Position numbers and translations under genes: made by a program | Shown here: piece after piece, positions 151 to 61,483 of the stretch | Layout of the letters: the number at the start of each line of letters is the position of its first letter | How positions within the stretch are numbered: the stretch's first letter is position 1 | Virus record (IMG/VR): IMGVR_UViG_3300020579_000012 | Span: 1 to 64,000 of that record | Origin: a virus | Direction: 5' to 3' (one strand) | Length of the DNA: 64,000 nt | The notes under the pieces: generated by a model | Seen by the model: the letters and a program-made list of their open reading frames with translations, nothing else | What the model was told of the DNA's origin: nothing | Databases searched by the model: none

Positions 151-248
151 CCGCTCTTGAGAGCGGCCAGAACGCACAGCTTGAGTGAGCCGAACTCGCC
201 CTTGAACTTGATTGATCCATCCCACCGTGACTTGATTTCAAATTTCAT
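1..248 (-). CDS. pentapeptide-repeat protein, N-terminal part (continues past the left edge)
   Basis: ATG at 248 follows AAGGATAGG. Translates [43 protein letters not shown]..., the A(D/N)LXX signature. Absent from the ORF track because no stop lies in the window. Confidence 0.8.
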
Positions 249-27829: not shown

Positions 27830-30241
27830 TCAAAATTCAATATCAGCCTGTCGTTGGCTCGGTTGAATCGTTGGCTTACCGAACTGAGCTACCTCGTCAA
27901 GGGCGCCGGTCGGCGGGTGTCCATTTGACCACGTAAGACCTCCCCAGCCGCGTGCCTCACCGCGCCGGACCTCTCTAACATTCGCTCCTCGAAGCGTCTT
28001 GTTAAACTCGCGCGTTGACATCGGTTTTCTACCACCATCCTCAGACCAGATTTTGTACCGATCGTAGACAAGCGGTCCAGCCAGCCAGCCGTTGGAATCA
28101 TCACGGCAGCACTCCCGGAGGAAGTCATAAGCTGAGTTGCAGTCGCGTCTGTACTCCTCAAGCGCATTCTTTGAAGACCCAGGTATTGTGAATCGACCGC
28201 GAGTCACAAGGCGACTAAGACCATCGACAGCCCGGGACAGGAACGCCGATAGAAGTCCTGATTCTGAAACCAGCTTCTCTGAGTATTTTTTGATCTCGTT
28301 TGCGGTGTCACGGATCCGCTGATTGAATTCAACAAAGAGGAACCGGTCGAAATAAGCCGACGACCGATCCGTCGCCCTCGGCATCTGATTCGTTGCGAAG
28401 ACCATCCGGCAGAACGGCCGGAACCAGAAAGGCGCCTTCCCTTTCTCCTCAGCTTTGATCTGGTTACCGTCGGTGATCTGTTTGAATATTCCAGTGTTCT
28501 CAAGCGCCTTCGACTCAAGCTCGTCGTAGCAGTTCGCGAGCTTACCGATCAAAACCGAAGCCAGGAATCGTTCCTCGGTAAGGCTTTGAAGCGAGCAGTA
28601 CGCTATATTTCTTTCGCCGATAAGGTGTTCGACGAGCTCAAGGAACGTCGATTTTCCGTTGCCACCTTCTCCTACCATAACAAGACATTTCGTCATCGAA
28701 GCGTCTGGGATCATCATATGCCCGACGTATTCCTCTATCATGAGGATCGCATCTTCCGGAAGTATTGACTTAAAGAACTTGTCGAGCGTCTCGGACTTCG
28801 CGTTTGGATCCCAGGCGACCGGGATTTGGATCGTCGAAATGTATTTTGGGTCGTGCGGGGAAAGCTGTTTTGTTCTCCAGTCGAGCATTCCGTTTTTGAC
28901 GTTGATTAGAGTTTTTGCATGGAGATCGACTTCGTCGTACGGTCTCTTTGAGAGTTCCGTGATGAGCTCGACGACTTCGGTCAGGTGCTTATCCCGGAGA
29001 GACTTGCCCATCGCTTTCACGATCTCGCGACGCGCAAAGTCAGATCCACCGGGCTTGAAGACGCCGTCCTTGTAGAAGGACAGTCGAATACCTTTCCCGT
29101 CATCGCCTATCGGTGTTGCCAGGAAGCGCGTTTCGGACATGATATGCGCAGCCAGGAGCGCTGGAACAAGCTTTCCATTCTCGTCGAACCATGGGGGTCC
29201 GTCTGAAGGGCCTCTAAGCTCATCGTCCTTCCGGCGTTCCTTTCGATCATCCTTCTCTTCGGCACGCTTAATCTCTTCACGTGCCCAAATATCCTCGACT
29301 ATTTTCTCGATCTCGTCGTCCGGGAGCGGTGGACGATTCTTCTTGTTCCAGTCTGTTATTGCGTAGAGAGCGAGTTTTCTTGTTTTAAGTTTTGCGCAGT
29401 AGTGTCCAGCCATTGCAACGGCCGATAGATGTCGTCCGCCGTAAGGTCCGCCGGATTCATCGACACCATCTTTAATCTGCTCGATTTTAGGGTCACGGGA
29501 CGTCGTTGATATTTTTGCGCGGTCCTTCTCTTCCTGCTCGATCTCGAGGTCATCGACTGATTTCTTTAGGTCCGTGATTGAGAAGTCCTTGAAAACCTCT
29601 ATCGGGTAACGGTTCCAGGTCGCATCGACGATCTGGCACCATTTCGGATCTTTAGGATTCTTCAGGTTCATGAAACCCGGCATCCGAAGGATTCTGCGCG
29701 GGTCATGAATTGAATCAGAGATCTTAAAGTAGTCCATGATTCCTGCGCAGACTGGACGCGCTAGTTCTTTCGGATATGGCTTATCGAAGAGCCAGTAGGC
29801 GTGCATGCCGCGTCCGGACTCGAGGACGATTGATGGTTGAAGGTCTCTTGCTTTAAAGTCTGCGACCACTCCATCGAACTGCGCCCGCACGGCCTGCTCG
29901 TTTCCATGGAAATCAACATCGACCCAGGCGGCAACGTAGTGTGAAACATCGGCGTTCGTTCCGTGCTTCTTCGGTTTCCGGAATCGTGGATTGATGCAAT
30001 GATGAATATTTTCGACTTGAGTCCGGTTCATGTGATCGAGTTGTCGTTCGATCGTCGGCCAGTCGGAGAGGACTTGGGCGACCGTGTAGAACATTGCCCG
30101 CATCCGCTTAGCGTCGGGGTTCTCCTGCGTCGGTCGGTACTGGAGCAGATTGAACTCGACGAACCAGTCGCTCGGGGCGGACCCCCAGAGCTCCCGTATG
30201 AACTGCGTCGGAGTTACCTTCTCCGACGGTTGATCGATCAT
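27830..30241 (-). CDS. bifunctional AEP primase-polymerase / D5-like SF3 helicase
   Basis: WVDVDFHG and ESGRGMHAYW (AEP motifs). Walker A VGEGGNGKST in the C-terminal helicase. Confidence 0.9.
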   Translation of the reverse strand: MIDQPSEKVTPTQFIRELWGSAPSDWFVEFNLLQYRPTQENPDAKRMRAMFYTVAQVLSDWPTIERQLDHMNRTQVENIHHCINPRFRKPKKHGTNADVSHYVAAWVDVDFHGNEQAVRAQFDGVVADFKARDLQPSIVLESGRGMHAYWLFDKPYPKELARPVCAGIMDYFKISDSIHDPRRILRMPGFMNLKNPKDPKWCQIVDATWNRYPIEVFKDFSITDLKKSVDDLEIEQEEKDRAKISTTSRDPKIEQIKDGVDESGGPYGGRHLSAVAMAGHYCAKLKTRKLALYAITDWNKKNRPPLPDDEIEKIVEDIWAREEIKRAEEKDDRKERRKDDELRGPSDGPPWFDENGKLVPALLAAHIMSETRFLATPIGDDGKGIRLSFYKDGVFKPGGSDFARREIVKAMGKSLRDKHLTEVVELITELSKRPYDEVDLHAKTLINVKNGMLDWRTKQLSPHDPKYISTIQIPVAWDPNAKSETLDKFFKSILPEDAILMIEEYVGHMMIPDASMTKCLVMVGEGGNGKSTFLELVEHLIGERNIAYCSLQSLTEERFLASVLIGKLANCYDELESKALENTGIFKQITDGNQIKAEEKGKAPFWFRPFCRMVFATNQMPRATDRSSAYFDRFLFVEFNQRIRDTANEIKKYSEKLVSESGLLSAFLSRAVDGLSRLVTRGRFTIPGSSKNALEEYRRDCNSAYDFLRECCRDDSNGWLAGPLVYDRYKIWSEDGGRKPMSTREFNKTLRGANVREVRRGEARGWGGLTWSNGHPPTGALDEVAQFGKPTIQPSQRQADIEF

Positions 30242-31826: not shown

Positions 31827-32036
31827 CTAACCTTCCTTCTTCTCTTCCTTGGTGTATCGCTTCGTTGTGACAGAATTGGACACACCATCCGGACCGAGTT
31901 TTACTTTACACCGATCGCACGGAGCAGTCGTCACGCGGATCTTCGCGGCGTGCTCTCCTGGAGGCAGGCGCCGGTCTGATTCGAGACCGAGCGACCTGCC
32001 GCAGTATCCGCAGATGACGACCTTAGGGAGACTCAT
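31827..32036 (-). CDS. small zinc-ribbon protein
   Basis: CGYCG ... CDRC. Confidence 0.55.
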   Translation of the reverse strand: MSLPKVVICGYCGRSLGLESDRRLPPGEHAAKIRVTTAPCDRCKVKLGPDGVSNSVTTKRYTKEEKKEG

Positions 32037-33826
32037 TGACGTATCTCCTTTGGGGCGCCATTCCGGATTGCCTCATGGAACCAGTCCGGAAGCATCTTCG
32101 AGTTCTTCCAGAGGAATGACTCAAAACCCGCGTCCAGCAGATAGGTCGTTGCCCAGTCGTCGCGCGAGCGTACGGAGCGTCCGTAGGACTGCACGATCTT
32201 GAGGGCGCAGAGCCATGCGTACCACTGGGAATCCATGTCCATACGCTGTTTGATGACCCTGTCCTTCATATTGGGCCATGGCATTTTTGCGATCACCTGG
32301 AAGCGCGAGAGGTCACCTTTCAGGTCGAGACCTTCATGCATGGCGGGCGCGACGATGACGGAGTCTGTCCGGCGGGCGTGCTCGGCCAGCATTTCGTCCT
32401 TCGACTCGAAGTGCTCCTGGAACAGAAGCCGGTCGCCGTGCGGAGCAGGGATGTCATTGAAAAGGATCTTTGAGAGCGAGAAGGAGTGGCAGTGGATGAT
32501 TCCACGCTGCCCGCGGTGCCGTTCCAGGATCTCGATGACTTTTCGGACGAACTTCGGCTCGGTCGGATCCTTCGGGTTCTGCTCGCGCGTGAAGTATTTG
32601 AAACCGAAGTTTCCGCAGTAAGACTTGTGGATCAGCCGGTTCTCCACCGGGAAGTCGCATGGCGTCCGGATTAGCTCGACCTCGTCCATCGAGAGTCCGA
32701 GGTTCCGGGCCCAGACCTTGACGTCCAGGATCGTTGCCGACATGAAGCAGAGGCGATCGGCGTGACGGAACAGTAGATCCTGTGCGAAGTCCTTTGCGTA
32801 GAGTGGGCGGGCGACGATCTTCCGGCGCTCGTCGTCGGTCCTTTTGTCGTTGTACTTTACGACCTCCAGGATCCATTCGGTCTTCTCTAAGAAGGTCATG
32901 AAGTTCGAGAGCTTACCGTCCAACTCTCTGAGGGCGTCGATCTCAGCCGCGGACAGGTCCACGTCGTCGGAGTCCATTGAGCTTTCTGCTTCGCCTTCTG
33001 CGGCCTTCAGACGCCGCATGATGAGCGCGACGAGGTCGGTTTCTGCGAGCCATTCCAGAAACTCCGCCTTCGTCCTGATCTCACGGGTGATCTGGACACC
33101 GACCAGCGAGAGCGCCCACTCCGAGAGCTCCAGCGTCACGAATCCCATCAACTGAGATTCGCAGTTGTGCGCCTCGTCGACGATCATGAGGGCACGTTTC
33201 GGGAACCGCGAGATCCGCTTCTGGAAGAGGAAACTTGAGAAGTTGAAGAGCGAGATCGCTGCGTCGTGGCAGCGCTGAAGCTGCGCCCAGTACGGGCAGC
33301 GGTGGAAAGTTGCGGGGAGTGCAAGGCCGACCGCGGCTTGCATCGGCGAGATCTGCGCTGCGGAGGCATATTGATTAGCCTCGTCCGTGATGCACTCGCC
33401 GAGGATGCCTTTCGACCGGCGGCGGCAGACGCCGTCGCCAGCGTCCTGGCCATCTTCGGCAAGTTCGTGCGTGCAGGAGTAGTTCGACCGGCCCTTCAGC
33501 GTCTCGATGTCCGGTGCTGGGTAATCGGTGGCATACTGGTCCTGCAGGATCTTCTGAGAGGTCAGCATGAAGGTCGATTGTCCGTCCGACCGGAGGGCGT
33601 TCGCCAGGGTTTTGCAGGCGTCGGTCTTTCCGGCGCCGGTTGGTAGCTCTCCGACCACCACGCGCTTTCCCGCCGCGAAGGCCGCAGCGGCGCGCTCAAG
33701 GAAGTAAGTCTGTTGCGGGCGTGGAGTTTTCCCTGGTGTGAAGTGCCCGAGAAGCTGTTCCGCTGTGAATGACCAAGGCTTCACGTTTGAACTGGTTTGC
33801 GGTGGCGCGGCAGGCTTTGTGACCAC
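32033..33826 (-). CDS. DinG/XPD (Rad3)-family SF2 DNA helicase
   Basis: ELPTGAGKTD (motif I), MIVDEAHN (DEAH), QSYGRSVRSRDD (motif VI). Confidence 0.9.
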   Translation of the reverse strand: MVTKPAAPPQTSSNVKPWSFTAEQLLGHFTPGKTPRPQQTYFLERAAAAFAAGKRVVVGELPTGAGKTDACKTLANALRSDGQSTFMLTSQKILQDQYATDYPAPDIETLKGRSNYSCTHELAEDGQDAGDGVCRRRSKGILGECITDEANQYASAAQISPMQAAVGLALPATFHRCPYWAQLQRCHDAAISLFNFSSFLFQKRISRFPKRALMIVDEAHNCESQLMGFVTLELSEWALSLVGVQITREIRTKAEFLEWLAETDLVALIMRRLKAAEGEAESSMDSDDVDLSAAEIDALRELDGKLSNFMTFLEKTEWILEVVKYNDKRTDDERRKIVARPLYAKDFAQDLLFRHADRLCFMSATILDVKVWARNLGLSMDEVELIRTPCDFPVENRLIHKSYCGNFGFKYFTREQNPKDPTEPKFVRKVIEILERHRGQRGIIHCHSFSLSKILFNDIPAPHGDRLLFQEHFESKDEMLAEHARRTDSVIVAPAMHEGLDLKGDLSRFQVIAKMPWPNMKDRVIKQRMDMDSQWYAWLCALKIVQSYGRSVRSRDDWATTYLLDAGFESFLWKNSKMLPDWFHEAIRNGAPKEIRQ

Positions 33827-37725: not shown

Positions 37726-39378
37726 ATGAGCAACACTGTCGAGAATCTCGATCGTGGCGTGTCAGGCACGTCGGCGACGCTCGACAAGATGCACCAGCTC
37801 GTCGCTCAGGGAAAACTCGACCCGACGTTTCAAAAGATTGCGACTTGGATCCGCGCATCCGTCTCACAGGATCGTCGTGGCAAGACCAAGGATACGGCCG
37901 ACGCGATCTTCGATTGGGTGAAGACGAGCGGGATCTTTCAGTCAGATCCATTTCAGATCGAGAAGATTGAAAGTCCGATCGAAGCGATGCGTCCGATCAT
38001 CCAGGCGCGTCAGGCAGGCACATATACGGGACCCGGTCTCTTTGTCGGTGACTGCGACACGTTTGCGATCATAACTGCGACACTTGGCGGCATTCTAGGT
38101 TTCCAGTACGCCTTCGAGACCGCGAAGGTCGACGCCTCTCGTCCGGACGAGTTTTCGCACGTCTGGACGGCACTACTTGTCGACAACGACTGGTACCCGC
38201 TCGACTCCTCGACTCCTGGCGCCTACCCAGGCTGGCGCCCTCCTGTCGCGCCGAATCTGCTGGCGCGTTGGCCGGAGCAACCGATCGAGAACTTCGTCAA
38301 GGGGTCCGTCATGAGCGCATTCAACCGCGGACTCGGCGATAACCAGACCTCACCGACTGCTGGAATTGACACAGCGTATCCGCAGGACTACATCGCCTAC
38401 GGTGTTCCGAAAGATTTTGGCGCTGGCCCTGGCGTGATTCCGCAAGCGAACTTCGATGATCTTCAACTTCTCCCGCCGCATGAGACGCAGATTCCGGACG
38501 CCGACATGCAGCCGGACATGCATCTGCTTAAGGCTGCGCCGCTACTAAACCCATCCGAACGGATCGAGTCGATCTCTGGATTCCCGACAAACGACCACGG
38601 AAACCCGTACTTCCAGAGCAAACCCGGCAACCCACGCTACAAGGTAGAAAACCAGTTTTACCCGCCCGGCTCGCGCTGGAACGGGCAGATGGGTCACGAC
38701 ATCGTCCGGTACGTTAAGACCGGGTCGTACGTGAAGGTCAAGAGTGCCGAGTCCCCAGAGAGACAAGTGAGGGCGAATATGGCTCAACCGATGATGGTTC
38801 GCAGGCGTATCATCATGTCGAACGGACGACAGATTCCGTTCGGTGCGATGGAGGGCCTCGGTCAGACTGATCCTGGTCTTGTCACGTCACTTGATCCGTC
38901 CGTCTCAGACCCGACAGCCACACCACCGGACACGTCGGGGATGGTTACGTCGCTTGGGCCGACTCCGGCTCCAGCTCCGACTCCAACTCCGGCTCCAGCA
39001 CCATCTTCGGCCTCCATCATGTCGACCGCCGTCACGTCGAATCAGCTTGCACCGACGCCGACTCCAGCCGCCTCATCGAGCCCGCAAGCCGCTGCCGCAG
39101 CATCCGCTGGAGGATCTGTCTGGTCGTCGATCTCATCTGCCTTCCAGGCTGCTGGAACGATCGCCCCGGCCGCGATGCAGTCATCGTTGATGCAGTCCGT
39201 TATCGCAGCGACGAACAAGCTTGCCGGGAAAACCGTTCTCGCACCCGGCGTCGTTCCATGGTACCTGAACCCGATCACGCTCTTCACGCTCGCCCTGATT
39301 GGTGGCGGCGGCTACTACATTCTGCACAAGAACCGTCCTGGGGGCTCCGGAACTCGCCGTCGCCGTCGGTACGCCTAA
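37726..39378 (+). CDS. transglutaminase-like cysteine-protease-fold protein with PAST-rich linker and C-terminal membrane anchor
   Basis: GDCDTFA (Cys), FSHVW (His), PLDSS (Asp). C-terminus LFTLALIGGGGYYILHKNRPGGSGTRRRRRYA. Confidence 0.6.
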   Translation: MSNTVENLDRGVSGTSATLDKMHQLVAQGKLDPTFQKIATWIRASVSQDRRGKTKDTADAIFDWVKTSGIFQSDPFQIEKIESPIEAMRPIIQARQAGTYTGPGLFVGDCDTFAIITATLGGILGFQYAFETAKVDASRPDEFSHVWTALLVDNDWYPLDSSTPGAYPGWRPPVAPNLLARWPEQPIENFVKGSVMSAFNRGLGDNQTSPTAGIDTAYPQDYIAYGVPKDFGAGPGVIPQANFDDLQLLPPHETQIPDADMQPDMHLLKAAPLLNPSERIESISGFPTNDHGNPYFQSKPGNPRYKVENQFYPPGSRWNGQMGHDIVRYVKTGSYVKVKSAESPERQVRANMAQPMMVRRRIIMSNGRQIPFGAMEGLGQTDPGLVTSLDPSVSDPTATPPDTSGMVTSLGPTPAPAPTPTPAPAPSSASIMSTAVTSNQLAPTPTPAASSSPQAAAAASAGGSVWSSISSAFQAAGTIAPAAMQSSLMQSVIAATNKLAGKTVLAPGVVPWYLNPITLFTLALIGGGGYYILHKNRPGGSGTRRRRRYA

Positions 39379-39382
39379 GTAA

Positions 39383-39652
39383 ATGTCTCAGATCATCTAC
39401 GTCCGGAGACCCGGCCTCGGCGACGTGACTTCATCGATCACGGACGCTGCGACCGCGTCTATGGCTCCCGTGATCGAGCAGATGCTCGTGAATGACGTTC
39501 TACCGATGGTTGTTGTCGGTATGGTTGCGGGAGCCGCCGTCGCCGCGTTCATCGGCACATGGTTTTCGCACAAGGCGATGCGTTCTGCAGGAGTTATCAG
39601 GAAGAATCCTGTCGCGCGGACGTACGTCTCGCTCCGACGGAGGCGTGCGTGA
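39383..39652 (+). CDS. small membrane protein with basic tail
   Basis: LPMVVVGMVAGAAVAAFIGTW ... IRKNPVARTYVSLRRRRA. Confidence 0.6.
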   Translation: MSQIIYVRRPGLGDVTSSITDAATASMAPVIEQMLVNDVLPMVVVGMVAGAAVAAFIGTWFSHKAMRSAGVIRKNPVARTYVSLRRRRA

Positions 39653-39675
39653 GCTGGCTGAATTTAAAATCAAGG

Positions 39676-42642
39676 ATGATGTCAGAGCTTCGGCGCTGGG
39701 CTCGAGGTATTACAGAGACCAGCGGCCCGGAGTTCAACTTCGACGCCGAGTCGGCAATCTGGTGGTTCGCAAACGACTACCACAGCGGCGGCGGCAGCGA
39801 GCTCTATCAGATCCTCTCGATGTCGAAACTCCGTCCCGGTCCGTCGCACCGTTCTGTCTCAGACGAGGGTGAGATCCCGGCGATGATGTACGAGGCTCTC
39901 GAGCAGAAGTTCATCCCGAAGGGTAAAGCTAAACGGAATCCTTCCCGTGTCCGAGCGAACAGTAACTACGCTCATCAGGACGCGAAGCTTTTCCAGATCG
40001 TCTACATCGGTCGATCGAAGTACCGAGCGATCGGACGGCTGCCAGACGGAATCATGCTCTGGAAGGGCTCAGGTCCGACGATTTATATGTTGATCGAGAA
40101 TGCCCAGGGCGAGTGGGGAACCGGTCGCTTCGACAACAAACTCTTCGCGCAGCCGGTCGCCCAGCAGTTCTCGCGTCTGCCGACAGAGACCAAGCGGTAC
40201 ATCATCACCCAGCAGAAACGCGGTTCGGCGATCACTCCGGGCGGCATCTGGAAGAACTCCGGAGGCTCCGTGCGGAAGAATATCTACACCTTTAACAATC
40301 CCGGCAACGCCCAGAAGATTCTCGCCGAGAACTTCATGCGCGGCGCGAACTCCGGCGTTGCATCGTCGATGTACATCCACGGGAACAGGATCTACTCGTA
40401 CGGCCCGCACTTCCCGATCGCGCAGCGGAACGACGACGGGACGATCCTGATCCGGCACCCGAGCAAGAAGGCGCCGTCAAAGACGACTGCGGGGCACATC
40501 TCCGCCGTCGTGAATGCTGCGCGTCAGGTCTACTCGCCCGACTCGATTCTGTATGACACGGCCGGGGAGCTTTCGGCTGAGGCGAAAGGTCCGGCGGCGT
40601 ACTCGAACCCAGGTGTCAGAAAAAACATCTACACGTTCAACAATCCGCGTGACTCCTCTGTCGAGTCCGCCGCTCGCGCGGTCGGTCTGTTCGTTGGAGT
40701 TTGGTCGCCTGGAGACGGACAGACACGATATCGCTTCTTCTCGAAGACAACGCGCGGTAGTCGGTATGCCGATTACCACGAGGGCGATGGCATCTACACG
40801 GCGCTCGGACGGAAGGACGCGCTGGCGTTCATTGCGGCATACGGGAAGGGCCGTGGAGCCAGGAGAAATCCAAAGACGTCGGTATATGTTATCGAAGGCT
40901 TCACACACCGTGGTCGACGCGGCAAAAGTCAACGGCGTGCGGAATTCAGGACGCCGTCTCTCACAGAGGCACGTGCGAGAGCGGAGCAGATATTCCAGGA
41001 GACCGGCGTTGTTGTTGCGATCACTCAGAGGAACCCACTGACACGCTCGGAGGCCGGATACCTGCTTCGGCATGCGAAGGCAGACGTCACCGAGGCAGCC
41101 GTCGCTCGCCGACATGGCCTGACCTACGAGCAGAAGTACGCCGTCGGACACGCCCGCGGGATCGGCTTCGCGGTCCAGGAGACAGGACCGAAGGCAGCGC
41201 GGAAGGCCTGGGTCGATCTCCATACGAGGTTGGATCGGGTCACTCGGAATCCGTGCTTGAATAATCCAACCTGCGCGAATCCGAGGCATCCGCACGGTCC
41301 TGTCGAGAACACAGCCTACGGACAGCGTCGTTCGTATGCCGACTTCGTCGCGCGGAAGCGTGCGGAGTACGGTGACAAGTTCGACGACTCGGATCTCGCG
41401 CCTCAGTTCATCCAGTACTACGAATCCGGCGCGCGGATCGAGGTCGAGTTCGTCTCGTCGACAACCGGTAAGCCGTACGAGACGAAGCGCGGTCGCGTCG
41501 GCGTGACGACCGGCTGGAAGCCTGTCTTTCTGCTCATGCTGACAACGAGAAGTATGGGTTCTCCGTACACGCTCGGGAAAAATGATCGTGTAGTCCGGTT
41601 CGTCCGGTCGAACCCTCTTACCGTCTCCGAAGACAGAGAGATCGAGCACGTCGCAAGACGTGAGAGGATCATAGGCGAGCAGATTCAGAGTCCCGGCAGC
41701 CGCGGGTATGCACTCGGTCACTCGGACGGAATGAACCACGTCCGGAGGAAGTACGGCCCTATTCGTCGCAACCCTCTCCTCCAGACGATCGGCCTGATGG
41801 CAAACCCGCCGGTCTCTGACCAGTGGAACAGGATGACGTCGCGCCAGCGACTCCATGCGCTCGAGTTCGTCGGCTACCCGACGGATTTCGCCAGTTCGAT
41901 GGCCCGGCGCCTCTGGATGACGCTTCCTGGGACTGCTCGCGAGCGCCTCGAGTCCGCTCGGCTCGACACGAGCTCGCGCGGGACGACCCGTCGGCGCGTC
42001 GCTGTGCCGGTCGGGGCGAATCCTCTGACACGGACAGAATCAGGTCAGATCCTTCGGGATGCGAGATTTGACGCCCGTTACGGATCGACATTTCAGGGTG
42101 GACACACTCGCTCATCCCGTGCCGGGATGGCCTGGGCGAAGGCGAAAGTCGTCCGTCAGTACGGACCGAAGAGCGCTCGTCGCGCTGCGAGTCGGATTGC
42201 CGATAAAGCTCGGACTGTGGCGCGGACGGCGATGTCGAACCCCGGTGTCCGCTTCCCGAAGCCCGGCACGAAGTTGACCGTTGCACAAGCCTTCGAGCTC
42301 GCGCGCCGGATCGGCGATCGGGCCCTGATCGAGCAGTGCCGGAAGGCGCTGAAGCTCCAGAAGGCCGCCAACAAGGACGTCAAGTGTGTCATCTGGAAGA
42401 CCTTTCCGATGGGCTCGAAAGGACAAATCGACTCGGTGATCGCCCTGACGCACTACGGCGACTCGCCGGAGACGATGTACCGGCCGCCGCCAGGATCGAA
42501 GAAGGGCAACCACATGTACCGTCACAACTGGGGCGAGAAGGGCGGCAAGCAGACCGTCCCGCTGCTCGCCTCGGCGGACGGGAAGATGCTGCTGATGCCG
42601 CTTGAAGGTAAGAAGGTCGCTTCCGATTGGCTGAGGCATTGA
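39676..42642 (+). CDS. 988-aa basic multi-repeat protein (internal or core virion protein candidate)
   Basis: ATG ATG at 39676. VRKNIYTFNNP occurs twice, NPLT(R/V)(S/T)E modules three times, and there are many [RKS]NP motifs. Confidence 0.7.
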   Translation: MMSELRRWARGITETSGPEFNFDAESAIWWFANDYHSGGGSELYQILSMSKLRPGPSHRSVSDEGEIPAMMYEALEQKFIPKGKAKRNPSRVRANSNYAHQDAKLFQIVYIGRSKYRAIGRLPDGIMLWKGSGPTIYMLIENAQGEWGTGRFDNKLFAQPVAQQFSRLPTETKRYIITQQKRGSAITPGGIWKNSGGSVRKNIYTFNNPGNAQKILAENFMRGANSGVASSMYIHGNRIYSYGPHFPIAQRNDDGTILIRHPSKKAPSKTTAGHISAVVNAARQVYSPDSILYDTAGELSAEAKGPAAYSNPGVRKNIYTFNNPRDSSVESAARAVGLFVGVWSPGDGQTRYRFFSKTTRGSRYADYHEGDGIYTALGRKDALAFIAAYGKGRGARRNPKTSVYVIEGFTHRGRRGKSQRRAEFRTPSLTEARARAEQIFQETGVVVAITQRNPLTRSEAGYLLRHAKADVTEAAVARRHGLTYEQKYAVGHARGIGFAVQETGPKAARKAWVDLHTRLDRVTRNPCLNNPTCANPRHPHGPVENTAYGQRRSYADFVARKRAEYGDKFDDSDLAPQFIQYYESGARIEVEFVSSTTGKPYETKRGRVGVTTGWKPVFLLMLTTRSMGSPYTLGKNDRVVRFVRSNPLTVSEDREIEHVARRERIIGEQIQSPGSRGYALGHSDGMNHVRRKYGPIRRNPLLQTIGLMANPPVSDQWNRMTSRQRLHALEFVGYPTDFASSMARRLWMTLPGTARERLESARLDTSSRGTTRRRVAVPVGANPLTRTESGQILRDARFDARYGSTFQGGHTRSSRAGMAWAKAKVVRQYGPKSARRAASRIADKARTVARTAMSNPGVRFPKPGTKLTVAQAFELARRIGDRALIEQCRKALKLQKAANKDVKCVIWKTFPMGSKGQIDSVIALTHYGDSPETMYRPPPGSKKGNHMYRHNWGEKGGKQTVPLLASADGKMLLMPLEGKKVASDWLRH

Positions 42643-42652
42643 GGGTGAGATC

Positions 42653-43762
42653 ATGATCGGAGCACTTGTATTTGCGAACCCCGGGCGGCCTGTCGCCGCA
42701 CGGCGGAGACGTTCACGTTCCAGAACCGCCCGCGCGACGGGCAAGGAGATCAGGATGGCACGCACTCGTACGCGCCGTCGGGCAGGGCGGCGTAGGAATG
42801 CCAAAGGGCATTTCATGAAGACACGCCGGTCGTCCCGGCGTCGGAACCCCAGCGGTCACATCAAGGTAGGCCGCCGCTGGAGGAAGATCACGAAGTTCGC
42901 CACGCGCCGCAAGCGCGGCAAGCGTCGCGGACAGATTCGTGGGTTTCACTTTCCGAAGCGGTATCGCCGGTCGCGTCGGCGCGTCCACCGGAACCCGGTG
43001 GTCGTGTCGAATCCGCGTCGGAGCCGTCGTCGGGCCCGCCGGAATCCGTACCGTCGGAGCTATCGGCACGCGCGCCGGAACCCGGCCGTGTCGATGCGTC
43101 TGTCGAACGATCCGATCGCGGCGATCAAGAATGCGCTGATGTCGGCGTTCTCGATGGACACCGCAGAGACGCTGTTCCAGATGGGCCTCGGCTTCGGCGG
43201 TGCGATGTCTATGAGCAAGTGGCTGTACGTTCAGCCCTGGATGCCCGCCACGGCCACGACGGCGCCGTTCGTGCAGGTCGGGTCGACGCTGTTGTCGACC
43301 GCGCTGTTGACCGGTGCGTCGGTTCTGCTCAAGAATCCGAAGTTGACGGCCCGGGTCCTGACCGGCGGTCTCTTCGCAACGCTTTGGCAGGGGCTCTCTC
43401 TGGCGGTTGCCGGAACCCCGGTCCAGCAGTTCATTCCGACCCTCTCCGGTTCGCCGGAGACCGATGCCTTCCGGAAGGCGATCGAGGCGGAGGTCCTCAA
43501 GGAGCTCAAGGGTGGCGGCGTCCACGGCTACCTGCGTGCGGCGGGTTCCGAGGGGATGTCGACCTACCTGCAGCCTGCCGGGATCGCGTACCTCAAGCCC
43601 GCGGGCAGCGAGGCGTACCTGACCCAGGTGAACACCGAGCGTGCGAACGCCGGGATGGGCGCCTATTTGACCCAGGTCAATTCCGAGATGGCGAATGCCG
43701 GAGTCGGACACGACCAGGGCGACGACGAGTTCTCCCGTCGGGGCATGTCGGAGAGGTTCTAG
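42653..43762 (+). CDS. arginine-rich (protamine-like) N-terminal domain fused to a hydrophobic C-terminal half
   Basis: RRRRSRSRTARATG...RTRTRRRAGRRRN...RRSRRRVHRNP... Confidence 0.7.
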   Translation: MIGALVFANPGRPVAARRRRSRSRTARATGKEIRMARTRTRRRAGRRRNAKGHFMKTRRSSRRRNPSGHIKVGRRWRKITKFATRRKRGKRRGQIRGFHFPKRYRRSRRRVHRNPVVVSNPRRSRRRARRNPYRRSYRHARRNPAVSMRLSNDPIAAIKNALMSAFSMDTAETLFQMGLGFGGAMSMSKWLYVQPWMPATATTAPFVQVGSTLLSTALLTGASVLLKNPKLTARVLTGGLFATLWQGLSLAVAGTPVQQFIPTLSGSPETDAFRKAIEAEVLKELKGGGVHGYLRAAGSEGMSTYLQPAGIAYLKPAGSEAYLTQVNTERANAGMGAYLTQVNSEMANAGVGHDQGDDEFSRRGMSERF

Positions 43763-43846: not shown

Positions 43847-43936
43847 CCGGGCCAGAACGCCAGCCCGTCCCGCGGTATTTTGTGGACGAAAGTCCCGGCC
43901 GATGCGGAAGTGGCGTGAGATCGAAAGGTGGAAGCC

Positions 43937-44599
43937 ATGAATATGGGACAGGCGGCGGCAGCCGCGGCGGCGGATCCCGCCAGCCAGGGAGTGACGGTCG
44001 TTCAACCGTACTACAAGATCACGCAGGGCGTTCCTGCGGCGATCGTGCGGTCGTACAAGCAGCCCTTGTACGACTCCGAGATCATCCTGGCGTCGGCGCC
44101 GCAGCGTGAGTTCACGCTGTACCAGAAGCCCGTCGGCCAGACGCTCAACGACGGTGTGACCGTGAAGACGTTCTTGTACTCGAACCAGACCCAGGCGGGC
44201 TCCCTCGGGACTCCCCTGAGTTTCGACGTATTCGGGTATAACTGCCGCATCTGGGGCAGCCCGGCGTCCAAGCTCCTGTCGATCGGCAACTACACCCTGG
44301 TCGAAGCCGCGGGCGTCGCCCAGGTCGTTTTCGGACAGGACACGACCTTCCTGACGATCCCGATCGAGGACGTGCCGTCCGGCGTCGACACCGAAGGTCA
44401 GGCCGTGACCGATGCTCCGCACATCGGCTGGGGCGTGAGCGACAACATCTACCGGTTCGATATCGGTGGACGTGCGCTCCACATCAACGCGACAGAGCCG
44501 TATTCCGTCAAGATCTCCTGGCCGAGCGGGCTGACCGGCACGACCGGCAACCTGCTCTTCCGCTGGTTCATGAGGGGCATCCTCTACAAGGGCGTCTAG
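43937..44599 (+). CDS. beta-rich structural protein, capsid candidate (jelly-roll-like)
   Basis: ATG at 43937 follows AAGGTGGA. Beta-strand-like segments; flanked by the strongest hairpins in the window. Confidence 0.55.
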   Translation: MNMGQAAAAAAADPASQGVTVVQPYYKITQGVPAAIVRSYKQPLYDSEIILASAPQREFTLYQKPVGQTLNDGVTVKTFLYSNQTQAGSLGTPLSFDVFGYNCRIWGSPASKLLSIGNYTLVEAAGVAQVVFGQDTTFLTIPIEDVPSGVDTEGQAVTDAPHIGWGVSDNIYRFDIGGRALHINATEPYSVKISWPSGLTGTTGNLLFRWFMRGILYKGV

Positions 44600-44731: not shown

Positions 44732-45673
44732 ATGAGTTGGGGTCAGGTACCGACATTCCTCCGCGACAAGGACACCGGCCAGATCTACATGAACCCAGCG
44801 AAGGACTGGGTTCAACCGTTCGAGCTGACGGTCTCGAAGCCGAACCAGATCATCCACCTCGCAGCAGGAGAGAGTCGTGGGGTCTTTCCGCTCACGGCCC
44901 AGTACGACGGGCCGATCGAGGTTTTCTATGTCAAAGCGAACGTCTATGCTCCGGCCGAGGACCCGACACAGCCGGGCGCGCTCCTTCAGACGTACGATAT
45001 CGATTTCCTGCTGGAGCATCCTGGAAAGCGGATTCAGTTCTCGAACAGGATCGTTCCGCTCCTGGCCCTATCCGGGAACGCTGCGCAGCCGTACGTCCTG
45101 CCGGAGACGATCTTTGTTCCGCCGGTCCAGTCGCTCAATCTGACACTCGTAAACAACGATCTTGTGAACGCCGTCTTCGTTGAGTTTGTTCTTGGCGGGA
45201 TCAAGTTCTATCCGAATCAGGCGCCCGCCGGTCAGATCAAGGACGAGGTTTGGAAGTACGTCGATCGGCGTGAGCGGACCTATTGCTACTTTCAGACGAC
45301 TGACGAGCCGGTCGTTCTGACGGCGCTCCAGGAGACCATGTTCTTCATGACGATCCCGGACAACTCGGACTTTGAGTGCTTCAAGCTCTCGCAGCAGTCG
45401 ACCGACGTCTTTCGCTGTTTGATTCGAGATGGTCAGAATGACCGGGCTCTAACCGGTGATCGGATCCACCGGGACCTGCTGTTCGGAGGTCACGCACAGA
45501 TGCCACTAGGAGCACAGTTCCTTGGCTCCGGTGGGATCTGGCCCGCTCGGTGGGCGTCATCCTGGCTGATTCGACGATCGACGAAAGTCCAGCTCGACCT
45601 GTCGGACATCTCGGACGCTTCGAACACGATCAAGGTCGTCTTCGCGGGGAGAAAGATCTCGTATGTCAGCTAA
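44732..45673 (+). CDS. beta-rich structural protein, major capsid candidate (two jelly-roll-like halves)
   Basis: 313 aa. Two halves each end in long beta-like runs (VEFVLGGIKFY; NTIKVVFAGRKISY). No HK97-like features seen. Confidence 0.5.
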   Translation: MSWGQVPTFLRDKDTGQIYMNPAKDWVQPFELTVSKPNQIIHLAAGESRGVFPLTAQYDGPIEVFYVKANVYAPAEDPTQPGALLQTYDIDFLLEHPGKRIQFSNRIVPLLALSGNAAQPYVLPETIFVPPVQSLNLTLVNNDLVNAVFVEFVLGGIKFYPNQAPAGQIKDEVWKYVDRRERTYCYFQTTDEPVVLTALQETMFFMTIPDNSDFECFKLSQQSTDVFRCLIRDGQNDRALTGDRIHRDLLFGGHAQMPLGAQFLGSGGIWPARWASSWLIRRSTKVQLDLSDISDASNTIKVVFAGRKISYVS

Positions 45674-51630: not shown

Positions 51631-52773
51631 ATGCAAGTTTACGCGCCCCCCGGCCCAGGTCTTGGAAGCCAGGAGGTTTCTGCCTTTCAGCGCCTTTCGC
51701 CCAGGTCTAGGGCACTTGTTGCGGATGAGTTTCGGAGCCCGGAGTCGCACGAGGCGATCCGATGGGTCCTCCAGCAGCGAGATCCGGAGGCCGCGTTAGC
51801 CGATGCGATTTCCGAGAATGTTCATCAGGCGTCCAGAGACGCTGCGTCTGGTGTTGGGCTTGGTGACGGACTTGGACGGAGCTTCTTTAAGAGACTTGCG
51901 AGGTTGCACCGAAAGATCTTCAACGTCTTCAAGAAGGTCGATCCGGGGCTTCATGCGCTGACAAAGAAGAAGCACAGTGGCTCAGCGGCGGTTCCGTACG
52001 CAGCGGCGACCGCCTCGGCACCAGCGCCGACGCCGCCTCCTGTCGATTCTGGATCTTCGGCGGCCCCTGGGATGTACAACATGCCTGCACCGATTGTGCC
52101 TACTCCTTCAGCTTCACAGCCGTCTCCATCTTCGTCGATGTACAATATGCCATCTCCGCAGGTGCCGGTCAACTATGTCCAGGAGCAGCCGCCGACGGAT
52201 CCATCTGCTTCCGCTCCTCCTACGTTCGATCCGTCGACGATGACACAGGTTGCTGCTCCCGCAACTCCTGTAGCTCCTGTTCCAGCAGCAGCATCGCCTT
52301 CTACACCCGTTGCTGCTTCGTCGTATACGACCGGCACGGACGAGACGGCCGGGCTCCCGTCGGCAACAGGTTACACGCTGACCGTTGAGGGCCAAACGAT
52401 CACGAACTATCCGGTTGACATCACGCAGATCTCGTCACTCGTCCAGTCTGGCACGCAGCCCGGAGACCGCTTCGAGATTCTAGCAGATGGAGTTGGGACC
52501 GGGCTCCGGGTCCGGACGACCACAGGTTTCATTTCGATCCCAGATTCTATGCGTGCGCAGGTTCAGGCAATGCCGAAGGGTCAAGTTCTCGCTCTCTTAA
52601 CGCAGGCCGCGGCGAATGTTGCGGCGTCTGGAGTCCCGATGCCGACACCGCTTCCGGCGACGCCGCCACCGAGCGCAGCACCGGCCTCGGACGGTGGTGG
52701 AATAGTCTGGCTACTCGGCGCTGGCGGTGTTGTGGCAGCTCTAGCGGTCGCTGGTGGAGGGAAGCGTCGGTGA
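51631..52773 (+). CDS. PAST-rich protein with C-terminal membrane anchor
   Basis: C-terminus GGIVWLLGAGGVVAALAVAGGGKRR. Confidence 0.7.
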   Translation: MQVYAPPGPGLGSQEVSAFQRLSPRSRALVADEFRSPESHEAIRWVLQQRDPEAALADAISENVHQASRDAASGVGLGDGLGRSFFKRLARLHRKIFNVFKKVDPGLHALTKKKHSGSAAVPYAAATASAPAPTPPPVDSGSSAAPGMYNMPAPIVPTPSASQPSPSSSMYNMPSPQVPVNYVQEQPPTDPSASAPPTFDPSTMTQVAAPATPVAPVPAAASPSTPVAASSYTTGTDETAGLPSATGYTLTVEGQTITNYPVDITQISSLVQSGTQPGDRFEILADGVGTGLRVRTTTGFISIPDSMRAQVQAMPKGQVLALLTQAAANVAASGVPMPTPLPATPPPSAAPASDGGGIVWLLGAGGVVAALAVAGGGKRR

Positions 52774-54107
52774 GCGTCCGCTACATCAAACGTCCGACGG
52801 TTACGTACATCCGGCGACCCGGCCTTGGAGGATTCGCTCCTCCGTCAGATCCGACCGCCGGATTGCCGGGTGGCGGTCCGATCTCATATCCAGGAGGCCC
52901 TGTAAATCAAACTTATACAGGACCTCAGAATCAATTCCGTTATCTTGCCGACGGAACTGCCCAGCAGCTTATTTTTCCTAAGTATTTCAGTGGAACAAAT
53001 GCTGGATCGTGGCAAAACGTAACCGACATAAGTAGCGTAGCTTTCGAGGGTATGAAGTGGTACGTCGATGGGATCTACTTCATTTATAGTGCAACAGACC
53101 CTCAATCTGGAGCGAGGAATCCTGGATGGCATCTAAGCCTTCCAGGTGCGCAGGAGATCTACTCGCGCGCCAATGCTATGAGATCTTCAGGGAATATAAT
53201 CTATGCGCCGCTCCCTCCCGGCGTAGACCAGACGACCATTGTTAGTCCGAGCAACAACACATGGAGTACTCCTCCGGATTCTATCAATGTTGATTACATA
53301 ACTGCGAAGCAGGCGGCGAGTCAGAACGTCCGCAGCAACACCTATCGGATCTACGATCCGTTCACTTGGCAGGGGTATCAGGCTCTTCCTGATGGTTTCA
53401 TGGAGCCGGTTGACGGAGGTGTCTGGGTCCTCGCTTCCGACAACGTGCTCGATGCTGTTCAGCAGAAGTTCGGAATTTTTGCGGATCCATGGTACTGGCT
53501 GGTTGCGACGCACCCGACGACCGGTCAGGAGCGGCTCTTTCTCGTGAATCGTGGACCGAATATCAGTAACATCTTCACGCGACTCGGAAAGACAGGTCCC
53601 ATGGTGATCTCGATCCTCGGGACTGTGCTTGCACCGTTTACGCTTGGCATCTCGGCCGCCGTCGCCGCGGTCGCTGACACGGCCATCGCGATCGAACAGA
53701 AGAAGGCAGCAGCAGCAGCCGCAGCCGCGGCCAATCAGCACCAAGCCGACGTTCTTCAGCAGCAGGTTAACGACCAGACGGTCCAGGTCACTGCGCAGGC
53801 CGACTCCGTCTATCAGGCGAACCAGACAGCATTCCTGGCGGCCGGGTACACGCAGGCCATCTGGAATGGGCTCACGCTCGATCAGAAAACCGCCCTTCTC
53901 CAGCAGGCCGCCGCCGGACAGCTCCAGCCAACCCCAGCCGCGGTTGCCGTGGCTCAGCAGACCCAGCAGACCGTCGCCAATGCCATCCAGAGCGCTACAG
54001 TAAACGCGGCGCTAGGTACGCAACAGCCGACGTCATCCGGCGGCGTCTGGCTCCTGTTGCTCGGCGGTGGAGCTGCACTGGCGTTTGCCGGGGGTGGAAA
54101 GAAGTAG
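52770..54107 (+). CDS. protein with C-terminal membrane anchor
   Basis: C-terminus GGVWLLLLGGGAALAFAGGGKK; N-terminus VTYIRRPGLGG. Confidence 0.7.
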   Translation: MSVRYIKRPTVTYIRRPGLGGFAPPSDPTAGLPGGGPISYPGGPVNQTYTGPQNQFRYLADGTAQQLIFPKYFSGTNAGSWQNVTDISSVAFEGMKWYVDGIYFIYSATDPQSGARNPGWHLSLPGAQEIYSRANAMRSSGNIIYAPLPPGVDQTTIVSPSNNTWSTPPDSINVDYITAKQAASQNVRSNTYRIYDPFTWQGYQALPDGFMEPVDGGVWVLASDNVLDAVQQKFGIFADPWYWLVATHPTTGQERLFLVNRGPNISNIFTRLGKTGPMVISILGTVLAPFTLGISAAVAAVADTAIAIEQKKAAAAAAAAANQHQADVLQQQVNDQTVQVTAQADSVYQANQTAFLAAGYTQAIWNGLTLDQKTALLQQAAAGQLQPTPAAVAVAQQTQQTVANAIQSATVNAALGTQQPTSSGGVWLLLLGGGAALAFAGGGKK

Positions 54108-54109
54108 CC

Positions 54110-54712
54110 ATGGACCCAGACGTCACCTACGCCCGGGCCCTCGCGACCGCCTTTGCGGCGGACATAGACAATCCGTCAATCGCCGGGGTGATCCAACGTG
54201 GTGGCCTTACGCAGGACCAGTTTACGTCGATTGTTTATCGGGACATTCAGCGGGGCCTTACCGGAGCACCTGGACCAGCTCTTTTTCCGTCTGTTCGGGC
54301 TTTTGCACGTCAGGTTGTTGGTATTACAGCGATAAAGCAGGCGAGGAGCTACGGACTCTCGCAGGCCTCTTCTGACATCGGCGGGGCCGCCGGTTTAGTC
54401 GGCGCTATTGCTGGAGCTGTTGGTGCGATTTGGAGTACGAAGATCAACACCGACTCCCAGAAGAATCTTGCAAAGATCCAGGCAAACGAGGCGCAGATCA
54501 CTCAGAACTCCCAGACACTTGCTGCGCAGTCTGCATTGATCCAGAATGCGACAGCGAACGGCGTACTCCTCTCTCCGGCGGGAGGTGTGACTCCTGTGAC
54601 CGCGATAGGTCCGTCGGGGACTCTGACCGCCGTTAGTGGTCTTCCGGTTCTGGCGATCGGAACGGCGCTCGCAGCGATGGTGTTCGGTGGCTACTTCTTC
54701 GCAAAAGGATGA
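54110..54712 (+). CDS. protein with C-terminal membrane anchor
   Basis: C-terminus LPVLAIGTALAAMVFGGYFFAKG. Confidence 0.65.
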   Translation: MDPDVTYARALATAFAADIDNPSIAGVIQRGGLTQDQFTSIVYRDIQRGLTGAPGPALFPSVRAFARQVVGITAIKQARSYGLSQASSDIGGAAGLVGAIAGAVGAIWSTKINTDSQKNLAKIQANEAQITQNSQTLAAQSALIQNATANGVLLSPAGGVTPVTAIGPSGTLTAVSGLPVLAIGTALAAMVFGGYFFAKG

Positions 54713-54716
54713 TTCT

Positions 54717-55574
54717 ATGAGAAACCTGCAGCACGGCGTTAGAGTCCGCGTCGTCCAGACGCCGTTGGTTATGTACGTCAACGAGGCGACCTGGATCCCC
54801 AGCGGCATGCATGGCTACGGCGACGAGGGCTGGCGGAGCGGCATGTCCGCCTACCCGGTCGTCGATGACGACTCCGCCGCGATCGAGCCGCTCGTCTCGA
54901 AGCTCATGGTGAATGGGTTACCGGAGGCACAGGCAAGGGCAATCGTTCAGGCCGCCGTAGGGCGTGTCCGGTCGGTTGGAGGCGGTATGGGCGCCTCGTT
55001 GATGGTTGAGAAGGCTACCGCTCTCGACGCGGTCTTCCAGGGTCTCTTAGTCAGGGGTATCCCTGCCGATCGAGCCCGTATTCTCGTCAACCGGGCTGCC
55101 ATGCGTCGTGCCGGTCTGTCCGGTATGGGCCAGAGCGCGACCGTCGACGCTGCAGTCCTGCAGAAGGCGAGCGATACGCAGACCCAGCACCAAGCTTTAA
55201 TTGCCCAGTACGCCGCGGCGACAGACCCCACTTCGCAACTGGATATCCGGAACCAGATTGATGCTCTGTATTCCGACTGGACGACCTACGCGGTCGGCGT
55301 CGAGAATGGTCAGCCTCCGTACCAGTGGAATCTGGCCGACCCGACCGCGGCAATCCTTTCGTCGATCCGAAATGACATCGCGAATACGCTGTCCCTGATC
55401 GATGCCGGGAAGGCTCAGCTCGCGCTCCAAAAGAACATCGTGACCTCCTGGTCGCAGTCTTCGCCGAATATGACCATGCCGACGATATCACCAGGCGATG
55501 TCCCCTGGTACGTCTGGGCGGGTGGCGGTGTGGTTGGCCTGACAGCACTCAGCAAGTTATTCGGGAAGAAGTGA
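54717..55574 (+). CDS. protein with C-terminal membrane anchor
   Basis: ATG at 54717; C-terminus VPWYVWAGGGVVGLTALSKLFGKK. Confidence 0.65.
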   Translation: MRNLQHGVRVRVVQTPLVMYVNEATWIPSGMHGYGDEGWRSGMSAYPVVDDDSAAIEPLVSKLMVNGLPEAQARAIVQAAVGRVRSVGGGMGASLMVEKATALDAVFQGLLVRGIPADRARILVNRAAMRRAGLSGMGQSATVDAAVLQKASDTQTQHQALIAQYAAATDPTSQLDIRNQIDALYSDWTTYAVGVENGQPPYQWNLADPTAAILSSIRNDIANTLSLIDAGKAQLALQKNIVTSWSQSSPNMTMPTISPGDVPWYVWAGGGVVGLTALSKLFGKK

Positions 55575-61084: not shown

Positions 61085-61483
61085 GTGACCAGAGTCGAAG
61101 TCCTCTTCGATCTCATCCGGACACAGGCGTCGCTCCGGTTCCCCTGGATCGCCCAGGTCAAGGTGAAGTTCTGTCCGATGGCCGACCGGGATCACGGGAT
61201 GAAATGGCGCCAGTTCGCCCATACAAATCATCGCGTGTACACGGTCTGTTTCGCGAAGGCGGCCGAGATCGAACTCTTCGACGAGGAGGTCCTCGGGATG
61301 TCGGCGCACGAGCTGGGGCATATCGTCGGGAAGCGTCTTCGATACCCGGAGCACTCGCGGCCGACGACGACGAAGAGGACCCCCAAGGCCGTCCAGGACG
61401 AGGCCGACAGGATCGCCCAGGAGGTCCTTGGGTTCGACGGCCTTCACTACAACCACCGGACGCTCCAGGAGCTTAGAGGATAG
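61085..61483 (+). CDS. small HExxH zinc metalloprotease-like protein
   Basis: MSAHELGHIVG motif; GTG start. Confidence 0.5.
   Translation: MTRVEVLFDLIRTQASLRFPWIAQVKVKFCPMADRDHGMKWRQFAHTNHRVYTVCFAKAAEIELFDEEVLGMSAHELGHIVGKRLRYPEHSRPTTTKRTPKAVQDEADRIAQEVLGFDGLHYNHRTLQELRG

Follow-up and report, generated by a model that had tools for sequence, protein, structure and literature searches.

Polyvalent proteins are very large, fast-rearranging multi-domain proteins of phages and conjugative elements that are predicted to be delivered with the genome; their domains also occur alone, and release by a peptidase has been proposed for them (Iyer et al. 2017, PMC5512222). They are, on our best reading, the closest concept for the system described here, which we regard as a variant of such phage polyvalent proteins or polyproteins. 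It is encoded by four adjacent genes, p0, p1, p2 and p3, on a 64,000-nucleotide stretch of virus DNA (positions 1 to 64,000 of IMG/VR record IMGVR_UViG_3300020579_000012; hereafter the window) that makes up most of an uncultured virus genome of ~69 kb. The dipeptide Asn-Pro (NP) is enriched far above chance in p2 and p3, and in p2 it stands at the seams between exchangeable modules. We tentatively interpret NP, at somewhat less than an even chance, as a recognition and cleavage site that would turn p1, p2 and p3 into small basic proteins.

Compared with polyvalent proteins as they appear in the relevant passages of that paper, p2 is alike in being a large, many-domain polypeptide of variable architecture whose domains are also found separately, and in belonging to a late or structural operon. 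None of the hallmark domains (MuF/SPP1 gp7, zincin-like MPTase, ARTs, ParB-like, DNA-binding, nuclease) was found in it, and it has no Pfam match and no significant fold match. The passages of PMC5512222 on linkers and processing mention no fixed dipeptide at the seams, whereas p2 has NP. The candidate peptidase for p2 is not embedded but a separate transglutaminase-fold protein, p0; the p2 modules are also much smaller (55-135 amino acids, aa) and more numerous. A literature search returned no description of an NP-delimited phage polyprotein.

Adenovirus pVII, pre-mu/pX and pTP are Arg-rich, DNA-condensing precursors with a non-basic leader, and a very short basic peptide is among their products. 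The adenovirus protease AVP is a virion cysteine protease, papain-like in a broad sense and of clan CE, with the consensus (M/I/L)XGG↓X or (M/I/L)XGX↓G. p3 has an Arg-rich region after a conserved leader, MIGALVFA-NP; it would be comparable if this leader is removed and p3 binds DNA. The motif here is NP with variable flanks and not (M/I/L)XGG↓X, the fold of p0 is transglutaminase-like and not that of adenain (clan CE), pVII and mu have no sequence or fold-level match to p3, and adenoviruses have nothing like the mosaic p2. Since motif, protease clan and proteins all differ, the parallel is functional only, an analogy.

In tailed phages, T4 IPI-III (with gp21) and the phiKZ inner-body proteins (with gp175) are basic or cargo proteins that enter the head with the DNA and that a virus protease trims at a simple motif before or during packaging; the prohead motifs are (L/I)xE↓ and (S/A/G)xE↓, and the proteases are herpesvirus-assemblin-like serine enzymes. 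In the window, by contrast, Pfam and PHROGs searches recognised no terminase, portal or HK97-type capsid gene, nor any tail gene in the late block (34233-61483), and no prohead protease of the herpesvirus-assemblin-like serine type was detected. The polyproteins of RNA viruses and retroviruses share with p2 a beads-on-a-string layout, a short junction motif and spacer peptides. Theirs are cut by a virus protease into a fixed replication or structural set, whereas the p2 modules are accessory and interchangeable and belong to a DNA virus of prokaryotes.

Enrichment of Asn-Pro in p2 and p3

A first-pass annotation of the window had described a recurrent (R/K/S)-N-P motif in three consecutive basic proteins, those named p1, p2 and p3 here, and every motif that it listed is present at the place given for it. 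We compared NP counts with those expected from composition and with residue shuffles (n=20,000). p2 contains 14 NP against 2.18 expected and p3 contains 7 against 0.68 expected, and 0 of 20,000 shuffles reached the observed count for either protein. Pro follows 35% of the Asn residues in p2 and 50% of those in p3. The NP excess is absent from the other ~80 open reading frames (ORFs) of the window, and the shuffles together with this whole-proteome comparison rule out chance or composition as its source.

The excess is found throughout both families. NP occurs 915 times in 84 p2-family proteins (136 expected), both in 37 p2 homologues (475 versus 73) and in 48 remoter proteins that have nothing but the C-terminal domain in common with p2 and are NP-rich throughout (441 versus 63), and 267 times in 57 p3 homologues (26 expected). 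The observed-to-expected ratio is 6.7 for the p2 family and 10.3 for the p3 family; p0 itself shows only a weak excess (155 versus 114). Among X-Pro dipeptides of the p2 family NP is the only one enriched (DP 1.07, SP 0.99, GP 0.95, and TP within 0.8-1.1), and other Asn-X pairs are depleted, so that NP stands out from all dipeptides. That NP alone is enriched, and not the other turn-forming X-Pro pairs, argues for sequence-specific recognition and against a generic linker. The residue before NP is commonly S, N, R, A or K and the residue after it L, G, P or R, so that only N and P are fixed within the motif. The recurrence described in the first-pass annotation is thus real and non-random, and the prefix that it gave is too narrow.

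Asn-Pro at the seams of the mosaic protein p2

The first-pass annotation had given p2 as a protein of 988 aa starting at ATG 39676. The better start is the GTG at 39649, which gives 997 aa, overlaps the stop codon of p1 (GTGA) and is preceded 6 nt upstream by the Shine-Dalgarno sequence GGAGG (39639-39643). The homologues of p2 range from 561 to 1213 aa and combine high local identity with low coverage, which marks them as mosaics. When 37 homologues are cut at N↓P, the pieces are bimodal in length, consisting of spacers of 3-17 aa and modules of 55-135 aa with an overall median of 72 aa; the NP-to-NP spacing is correspondingly bimodal (5-15 and 50-120 aa), as fits modules plus spacers. These 37 proteins hold at least 68 module clusters. 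Module order varies: a module that opens the protein in one virus can lie close to the C-terminus in a second. Nearly every module of p2 carries a net positive charge, and the whole behaves as a string of independent modules, which agrees with the polyprotein-like organisation first suggested for it.

The first-pass annotation had placed the NP sites at module boundaries, and three lines of evidence bear this out: segment lengths, alignment breakpoints and a structural model. In an all-against-all BLAST comparison of p2 homologues, an NP lies no more than 5 residues away from 59% of the internal alignment starts and from 56% of the ends, compared with 15% of random positions; the commonest start is the N itself and the commonest end is the P. 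In 36 mosaic homologues N708-P709 is invariant, and N320/P321, N407/P408, N719/P720, N791/P792 and N864/P865 are at least 90% conserved while their flanks vary, so that NP columns are among the few conserved alignment columns of p2. At N-terminal modules NP is sometimes kept behind a leader of 2-12 residues (23 of 84 proteins) and sometimes dropped, which indicates that NP is a property of the seam, not of the fold.

An AlphaFold model of p2, made from the alignment of 36 sequences, is of low confidence overall (predicted template modelling score, pTM, 0.32) and contains well-predicted small domains at aa 1-93, 218-305, 335-403, 410-462, 463-535, 720-773, 792-861 and 866-940. The low-confidence linkers between them hold the NP sites. 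All 14 NP lie in coil, and 12 of the 14 fall within segments with a predicted local distance difference test score (pLDDT) below 50, which make up 37% of the chain (binomial probability ~3e-4, calculated by hand). The next helix or strand begins 2-10 residues past the Pro. A conserved short motif is found at every junction between the independently folding units of p2.

Some of the short pieces are themselves conserved (for example PG.VRKNIFTFNN, PLLQTV.LAN and Cys-containing pentapeptides). VRKNIYTFNNP occurs twice in the p2 of the window (40270-40302 and 40615-40647), as had been noted, and family-wide (P0002-P0036) the 11-residue spacer VRKNI(F/Y)xFNNP is flanked by NP on both sides and is present in 1-3 copies per protein. 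A second spacer, NPLLQTVxLANP, has an invariant first NP. Either spacer could be a protease docking site, a released peptide or a cofactor. Three NPLT.(S/T)E modules form a second module family, also correctly described before.

The conservation lies in the protein and not in the DNA, as the first-pass annotation had claimed. NP is encoded with either Asn codon and with any of the four Pro codons, and the copies of VRKNIYTFNNP in p2 differ in DNA at nearly every synonymous site, divergence at such sites being saturated family-wide. Saturated synonymous sites in the repeated linkers, together with free codon choice, indicate that selection acts on the peptide. Across all ORFs of the window, G occupies the third position in 64% of the codons followed by one that begins with A, and AAT encodes the Asn of half of the Asn-Pro pairs against 36% of other Asn codons; the G before the Asn codon and the raised use of AAT at NP are genome-wide codon-context effects.

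The last third of p2 is constant and consists of a PP.S.QW module, a PLTR.E module and a terminal domain of 133 aa. Among 1.84 billion proteins, 63 cluster representatives contain this terminal domain; the proteins are 133-1248 aa long, and the domain invariably forms their very C-terminus. Two of the variable modules have stand-alone relatives, in unrelated tailed phages. The module at aa ~561-650 of p2 shares ~36% identity with gp136 (103 aa) of Mycobacterium phage Kostya and with 21 further cluster-mates, and a different module, carried by the homologue P0026, has matches among the hypothetical proteins of Burkholderia phage BcepSauron and Agrobacterium phage JP1. Pfam gave no match for p2 at E<=0.1 or for six homologues at E<=0.01, PHROGs matched p2 with just two families, both of unknown function, and comparison of p2 with PDB sequences and by Foldseek with PDB and BFVD gave nothing significant.

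p2 also contains the stretch NPCLNNPTCANPRHPH (41248-41283), in which three NP within 12 residues are interleaved with Cys and followed by His-x-His. Its counterpart in relatives is NPxxCxNPxxRGDKL or NPCSNPVCNNPRHGH, and the cluster may form a small metal-binding knuckle where two modules meet.

Conserved Asn-Pro sites in p3 and p1

p3 is protamine-like, as had been proposed, with an Arg-rich N-terminal half and NP at fixed, conserved positions. The six motifs listed for it are all present, and a seventh, LKNPKL, had been overlooked. In p3 homologues NP occupies five fixed alignment columns (54/55, 52/52, 45/48, 31/49 and 53/54), and the NP of the leader is present in 8/8. In many relatives gene callers placed the p3 start at an internal MAR(S/T) codon, and the leader MIGALVFANPGR is still encoded in-frame upstream of the called starts in two related loci, L005 (12764-12856) and L006 (13643-13754). 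Public annotations of the p3 family are therefore probably truncated at the N-terminus. The p3 orthologue of L004, a lineage 25-30% identical, retains the same plan and NP pattern.

p1 is the small membrane protein in which a single motif, IRKNPV, had been noted. In 4 of 6 loci a single (R/K/S)NP follows its helix and precedes an RRRR tail; among the orthologues, those of L001, L005 and L006 keep one (R/S)NP there, whereas the site is missing in L003 and different in L004.

p0, a candidate processing enzyme

Two genes had been named as possible proteases. The one at 61085-61483 has no Pfam or PHROG match and was dropped; the one at 37726-39378, p0, is a credible candidate with a transglutaminase/papain-like fold. 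We collected 101 homologues of p0, and in 33 diverse members D109-C110-D111, S144-H145 and D160 are invariant. Pfam Transglut_core is matched by 7 of these 33 (best 1.7e-8), and the L004 orthologue carries PF01841; the p0 of the window itself has no match to this Pfam model at E<=0.1. The top Foldseek matches of its modelled N-terminal domain, all with this fold, are the putative cysteine protease 3isr (1.6e-4), TglA, transglutaminase 2, PNGase and factor XIIIa. A profile of p0 gave only spurious matches to PDB sequences, and the fold was set by the Pfam matches of family members and by Foldseek. On these grounds p0 belongs to the transglutaminase-like superfamily (PF01841), with a Cys-His-Asp triad on a papain-like core fold.

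The gene order p0-p1-p2-p3 is kept in every related locus fetched (L001, L003-L006), and p0 accompanies an NP-rich p2 and p3 in 6/6 loci, including the L004 lineage. p3 starts 10 nt beyond the stop of p2, and the four genes lie within a late block on the plus strand that extends from ~34.2 kb to 61.5 kb (34233-61483). The best explanation is that p0, p1, p2 and p3 make up a late operon, conserved and coupled in translation, of an uncultured virus of ~69 kb. Within it p2 is flanked by genes for proteins of membrane type.

Table 1. Features of the p0-p3 operon and of other genes named in the text. Nucleotide positions are those of the window; residue positions are marked aa.
Feature	Position	Strand	Description
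p0	37726..39378	+	550 aa; candidate processing enzyme
p0 transglutaminase-like Cys-His-Asp domain	aa ~10-195		AlphaFold pLDDT ~90
p0 triad	Cys110, 38053-38055; His145, 38158-38160; Asp160, 38203-38205	+	
p0 remainder	helix aa 516-535		long low-confidence Pro/Ala/Thr-rich linker, hydrophobic helix, RRRRRYA tail
p1	39383..39652	+	89 aa; one hydrophobic helix, then IRK-NP-VARTYVSLRRRRA; NP at 39605-39610
p2	39649..42642	+	997 aa; basic, pI 10.4; mosaic; GTG start; 14 NP
p2 variable part	39649..42240	+	modules defined by cutting at N↓P
p2 modules, first half	aa 1-97, 98-217, 218-320, 333-407, 408-462, 463-534		
p2 modules, second half of variable part	aa 545-655, 656-708, 720-791, 792-864		
p2 mini-segment	aa 321-332		PGVRKNIYTFNN
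p2 Cys mini-segments	aa 535-539, 540-544		
p2 mini-segment	aa 709-719		PLLQTIGLMAN
p2 NP sites 1-7, first base of Asn codon	39937, 40297, 40606, 40642, 40867, 41032, 41248	+	
p2 NP sites 8-14, first base of Asn codon	41263, 41278, 41611, 41770, 41803, 42019, 42238	+	
p2 module with stand-alone homologues	41329..41598 (aa ~561-650)	+	phrog_8217, 9.2e-10
p2 constant C-terminal domain	42241..42642	+	133 aa; PGVRFPKPGTK...YGDSPETMY.PP.GSKKG.HMYRH.W...DWLRH; no internal NP
NP-spanning stretches			VRKNIYTFNNPGNA, RRNPLLQT, ALVFANPGRP
p3	42653..43762	+	369 aa; pI 12; leader, Arg-rich region, C-terminal half
p3 leader			MIGALVFA-NP(-G); conserved; 9 residues
p3 Arg-rich region	aa 10-143		NP codons, from the leader on, start at 42677, 42845, 42992, 43010, 43043, 43079
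p3 non-conserved NP	43334		
p3 C-terminal half	aa 144-369		hydrophobic/amphipathic
Beta-rich protein	43928-44599	+	223 aa; directly after p3; length and order kept in all related loci (A3, A4)
Beta-rich protein	44732-45673	+	313 aa; after the 223-aa protein; length and order kept in all related loci (A3, A4)
D5-type primase-helicase	27830-30241	-	replication gene of left half
DEAD/Helicase_C_2 helicase	32033-33826	-	replication gene of left half

Proposed processing of p1, p2 and p3

We propose that p2 may be a cargo polyprotein, a string of small, independently folding and mostly basic modules that are swapped over evolutionary time and hang on the constant C-terminal domain, which would probably direct incorporation into the particle. 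NP, placed in a flexible linker shortly before each module, would serve as the signal of a site-specific endopeptidase, for which p0, a transglutaminase-fold Cys-His-Asp protein encoded immediately upstream, is the likeliest candidate. The modules would then be released as separate proteins of 6-15 kDa together with short spacer peptides such as PGVRKNIYTFNN. In p3 the 9-residue leader would be removed and the Arg-rich region cut into protamine-like peptides, either attached to or released from the membrane-associated C-terminal half, and in p1 the basic tail would be clipped off. p1, p2 and p3 would be components of the virion. For a dipeptide in exposed linkers at the seams, common to three basic proteins that are transcribed together beside a Cys-His-Asp enzyme, NP-specific proteolysis of precursors would be the simplest mechanism. 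Module turnover, and stand-alone homologues among small early phage genes, make host takeover or anti-defence a likely role for the p2 modules.

Several points weigh against this reading. Orthologous seams sometimes have NNG, NNS or NNGP in place of NNP, which means that NP is not absolutely required. In the p2 model the low confidence of the stretch 583-719 comes from a shallow alignment and does not necessarily denote disorder. The transglutaminase fold also houses non-proteolytic enzymes (cross-linkers, deamidases and amidases), and TG2, FXIIIa and PNGase are among the matches of p0. p0 is membrane-anchored with a basic tail; were the basic tails of p0 and p1 to face the same side, the membrane would separate the NP of p1 from the catalytic domain. 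Pro beside the scissile bond is disfavoured by many proteases, and we know of no characterised protease of the p0 fold with Asn-Pro specificity. Finally, the phage collection contained no cultured relatives, and no proteome was found.

If NP is a cleavage signal, p0 and its substrates would be a new protease-substrate pair with a short, portable recognition site and potential as a tool, and a widespread, uncharacterised viral branch of transglutaminase-like proteins would gain a function. A single gene would carry dozens of small accessory proteins in the form of swappable cassettes, and the modules, at least 68 of them, would make up a catalogue of candidates for host takeover or anti-defence whose boundaries are readable from sequence. 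Among viruses of prokaryotes, p3 would be a rare case of a protamine-like protein that is processed and condenses the genome. A broader and, to our minds, doubtful picture is that of a lineage of prokaryotic viruses, possibly membrane-containing and non-tailed, that mature the particle interior with an NP-specific transglutaminase-fold endopeptidase, which would dice a protamine-like core protein and a cassette polyprotein whose modules are freed as a co-delivered host-takeover and anti-defence cocktail. Such a lineage would bring a new protease specificity and a new organisation of phage accessory genes, and its processing of the core would be the prokaryotic equivalent of what adenovirus does. 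Were NP to be left uncut, a dipeptide that marks seams so strictly would still help to parse dark-matter virus proteins.

Alternative explanations for Asn-Pro

NP might instead be uncleaved structural punctuation, with an Asx-Pro turn that stiffens or insulates the linkers of p2 and that acts in the Arg-rich parts of p3 and p1 like SPKK/SPXX turns in binding or condensing DNA. Asx-Pro and (S/T)P-x-x turns are well known as local motifs, and SPKK/SPXX turns occur in sperm histones and protamine-like proteins. Such a role suits the position of NP in linkers just upstream of domain starts, the RR-NP-xR contexts at fixed spacing in which the NP of p3 is embedded, and the strongly basic character of p1, p2 and p3 (Table 1). 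A purely structural need would, however, tolerate SP, DP, GP and TP, which stand at only 0.8-1.07, and N and P are as invariant as core residues despite lying in low-confidence linkers. The helix caps after NP in the model are T465, T794 and D335, not Asn, and a helix N-cap role of NP is ruled out on that ground. Nor does an uncleaved turn explain the conserved hydrophobic leader of 9 residues before the first NP of p3, or the short conserved spacers flanked by NP. A DNA-condensing repeat, also put forward in the first-pass annotation, suits p3 and gives no reason for NP at every seam of p2. We consider uncleaved punctuation unlikely.

Recognition by p0 without proteolysis would account for sequence-specific conservation of Asn in exposed linkers as well as any other enzyme-recognition model. 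p0 might deamidate the Asn, or it might by transamidation cross-link the proteins with one another, with the capsid or with the membrane, by analogy with the Lys-Asn isopeptide bonds that HK97 capsids and Gram-positive pili contain. True transglutaminases, factor XIIIa and PNGase, enzymes that work on side-chain amides, are among the closest structural relatives of p0. To our knowledge, however, transglutaminases use Gln and not Asn. Cross-linking also leaves the seams and the p3 leader without an account, and the exchange of modules and their stand-alone homologues suggest separate entities. We consider non-proteolytic action of p0 very unlikely.

Self-cleavage by asparagine peptide lyase chemistry, in which the Asn side chain attacks its own peptide bond with no protease involved, is a shade less probable again. 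Asn self-cleavage is common in virus capsid maturation, and the scissile pair in reovirus mu1 (Asn42↓Pro43) and in FlhB/YscU (N↓PTH) is exactly Asn-Pro. These known cases (reovirus mu1 and FlhB/YscU/EscU) have one site each in a strained, folded context with further conserved residues, whereas p2 and p3 have 7-21 sites per protein in flexible linkers, modelled as low-confidence coil, where only N and P are conserved. FlhB-type autocleavage is ruled out by the absence of NPTH (0/915 sites). In unstructured peptides, Asn-Pro bonds need weeks to months to break spontaneously, which also counts against self-cleavage.

Least credible of all is that the NP linkers are DNA recombination boxes (compare the glycine-rich motifs of T-even adhesins) or 2A-like skipping or pause sites: breakpoints between shuffled modules do coincide with NP, and short conserved spacers (VRKNIFTFNNP, NPLLQTVxLANP) flank many modules, but DNA-level conservation is lacking, all codons are used with flanking base biases that are genome-wide, the core NPGP occurs at 1 of 915 sites with D(V/I)ExNPG↓P unmatched, which rules out 2A-like skipping, and we know of no 2A skipping on bacterial ribosomes, so that DNA-level or translational roles of NP are largely excluded.

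Genome setting

The p2 of the window is identical to P0001, a protein encoded on a contig of 68,831 bp, and the contigs of relatives measure 57-73 kb; contigs of the P0001 type come from soil or sediment samples. The left half of the window carries replication genes on the minus strand (Table 1). The two beta-rich proteins encoded after p3 are possible small and large capsid proteins; neither the 223-aa nor the 313-aa protein has a PDB sequence match, and a profile of the 313-aa protein returned nothing from PDB. The virion may be membrane-containing and non-tailed. Organism labels among relatives (P0079/P0147) are few: the 14-kb contig L007 (JBOGJN010000436.1), the sole hint of a host, is binned in a Thermoanaerobaculia (Acidobacteriota) metagenome-assembled genome (MAG), and one p0 homologue is labelled as coming from a Thermoplasmata archaeon MAG. 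Both labels probably reflect free virus contigs binned into MAGs.

A hydrophobic helix followed by a basic tail ends at least four late proteins (37726-39378, 51631-52773, 52770-54107 and 54636-55574). In related loci, methyltransferases lie between a 700-aa protein and p0. The window encodes two GT4-family glycosyltransferases, at 24404-26122 on the minus strand and 55652-56980 on the plus strand, the 'GT4-conflict' model being among the matches. Gly-rich N-terminal runs are present in the proteins starting at 46422, 46833, 47737, 48416 and 59178.

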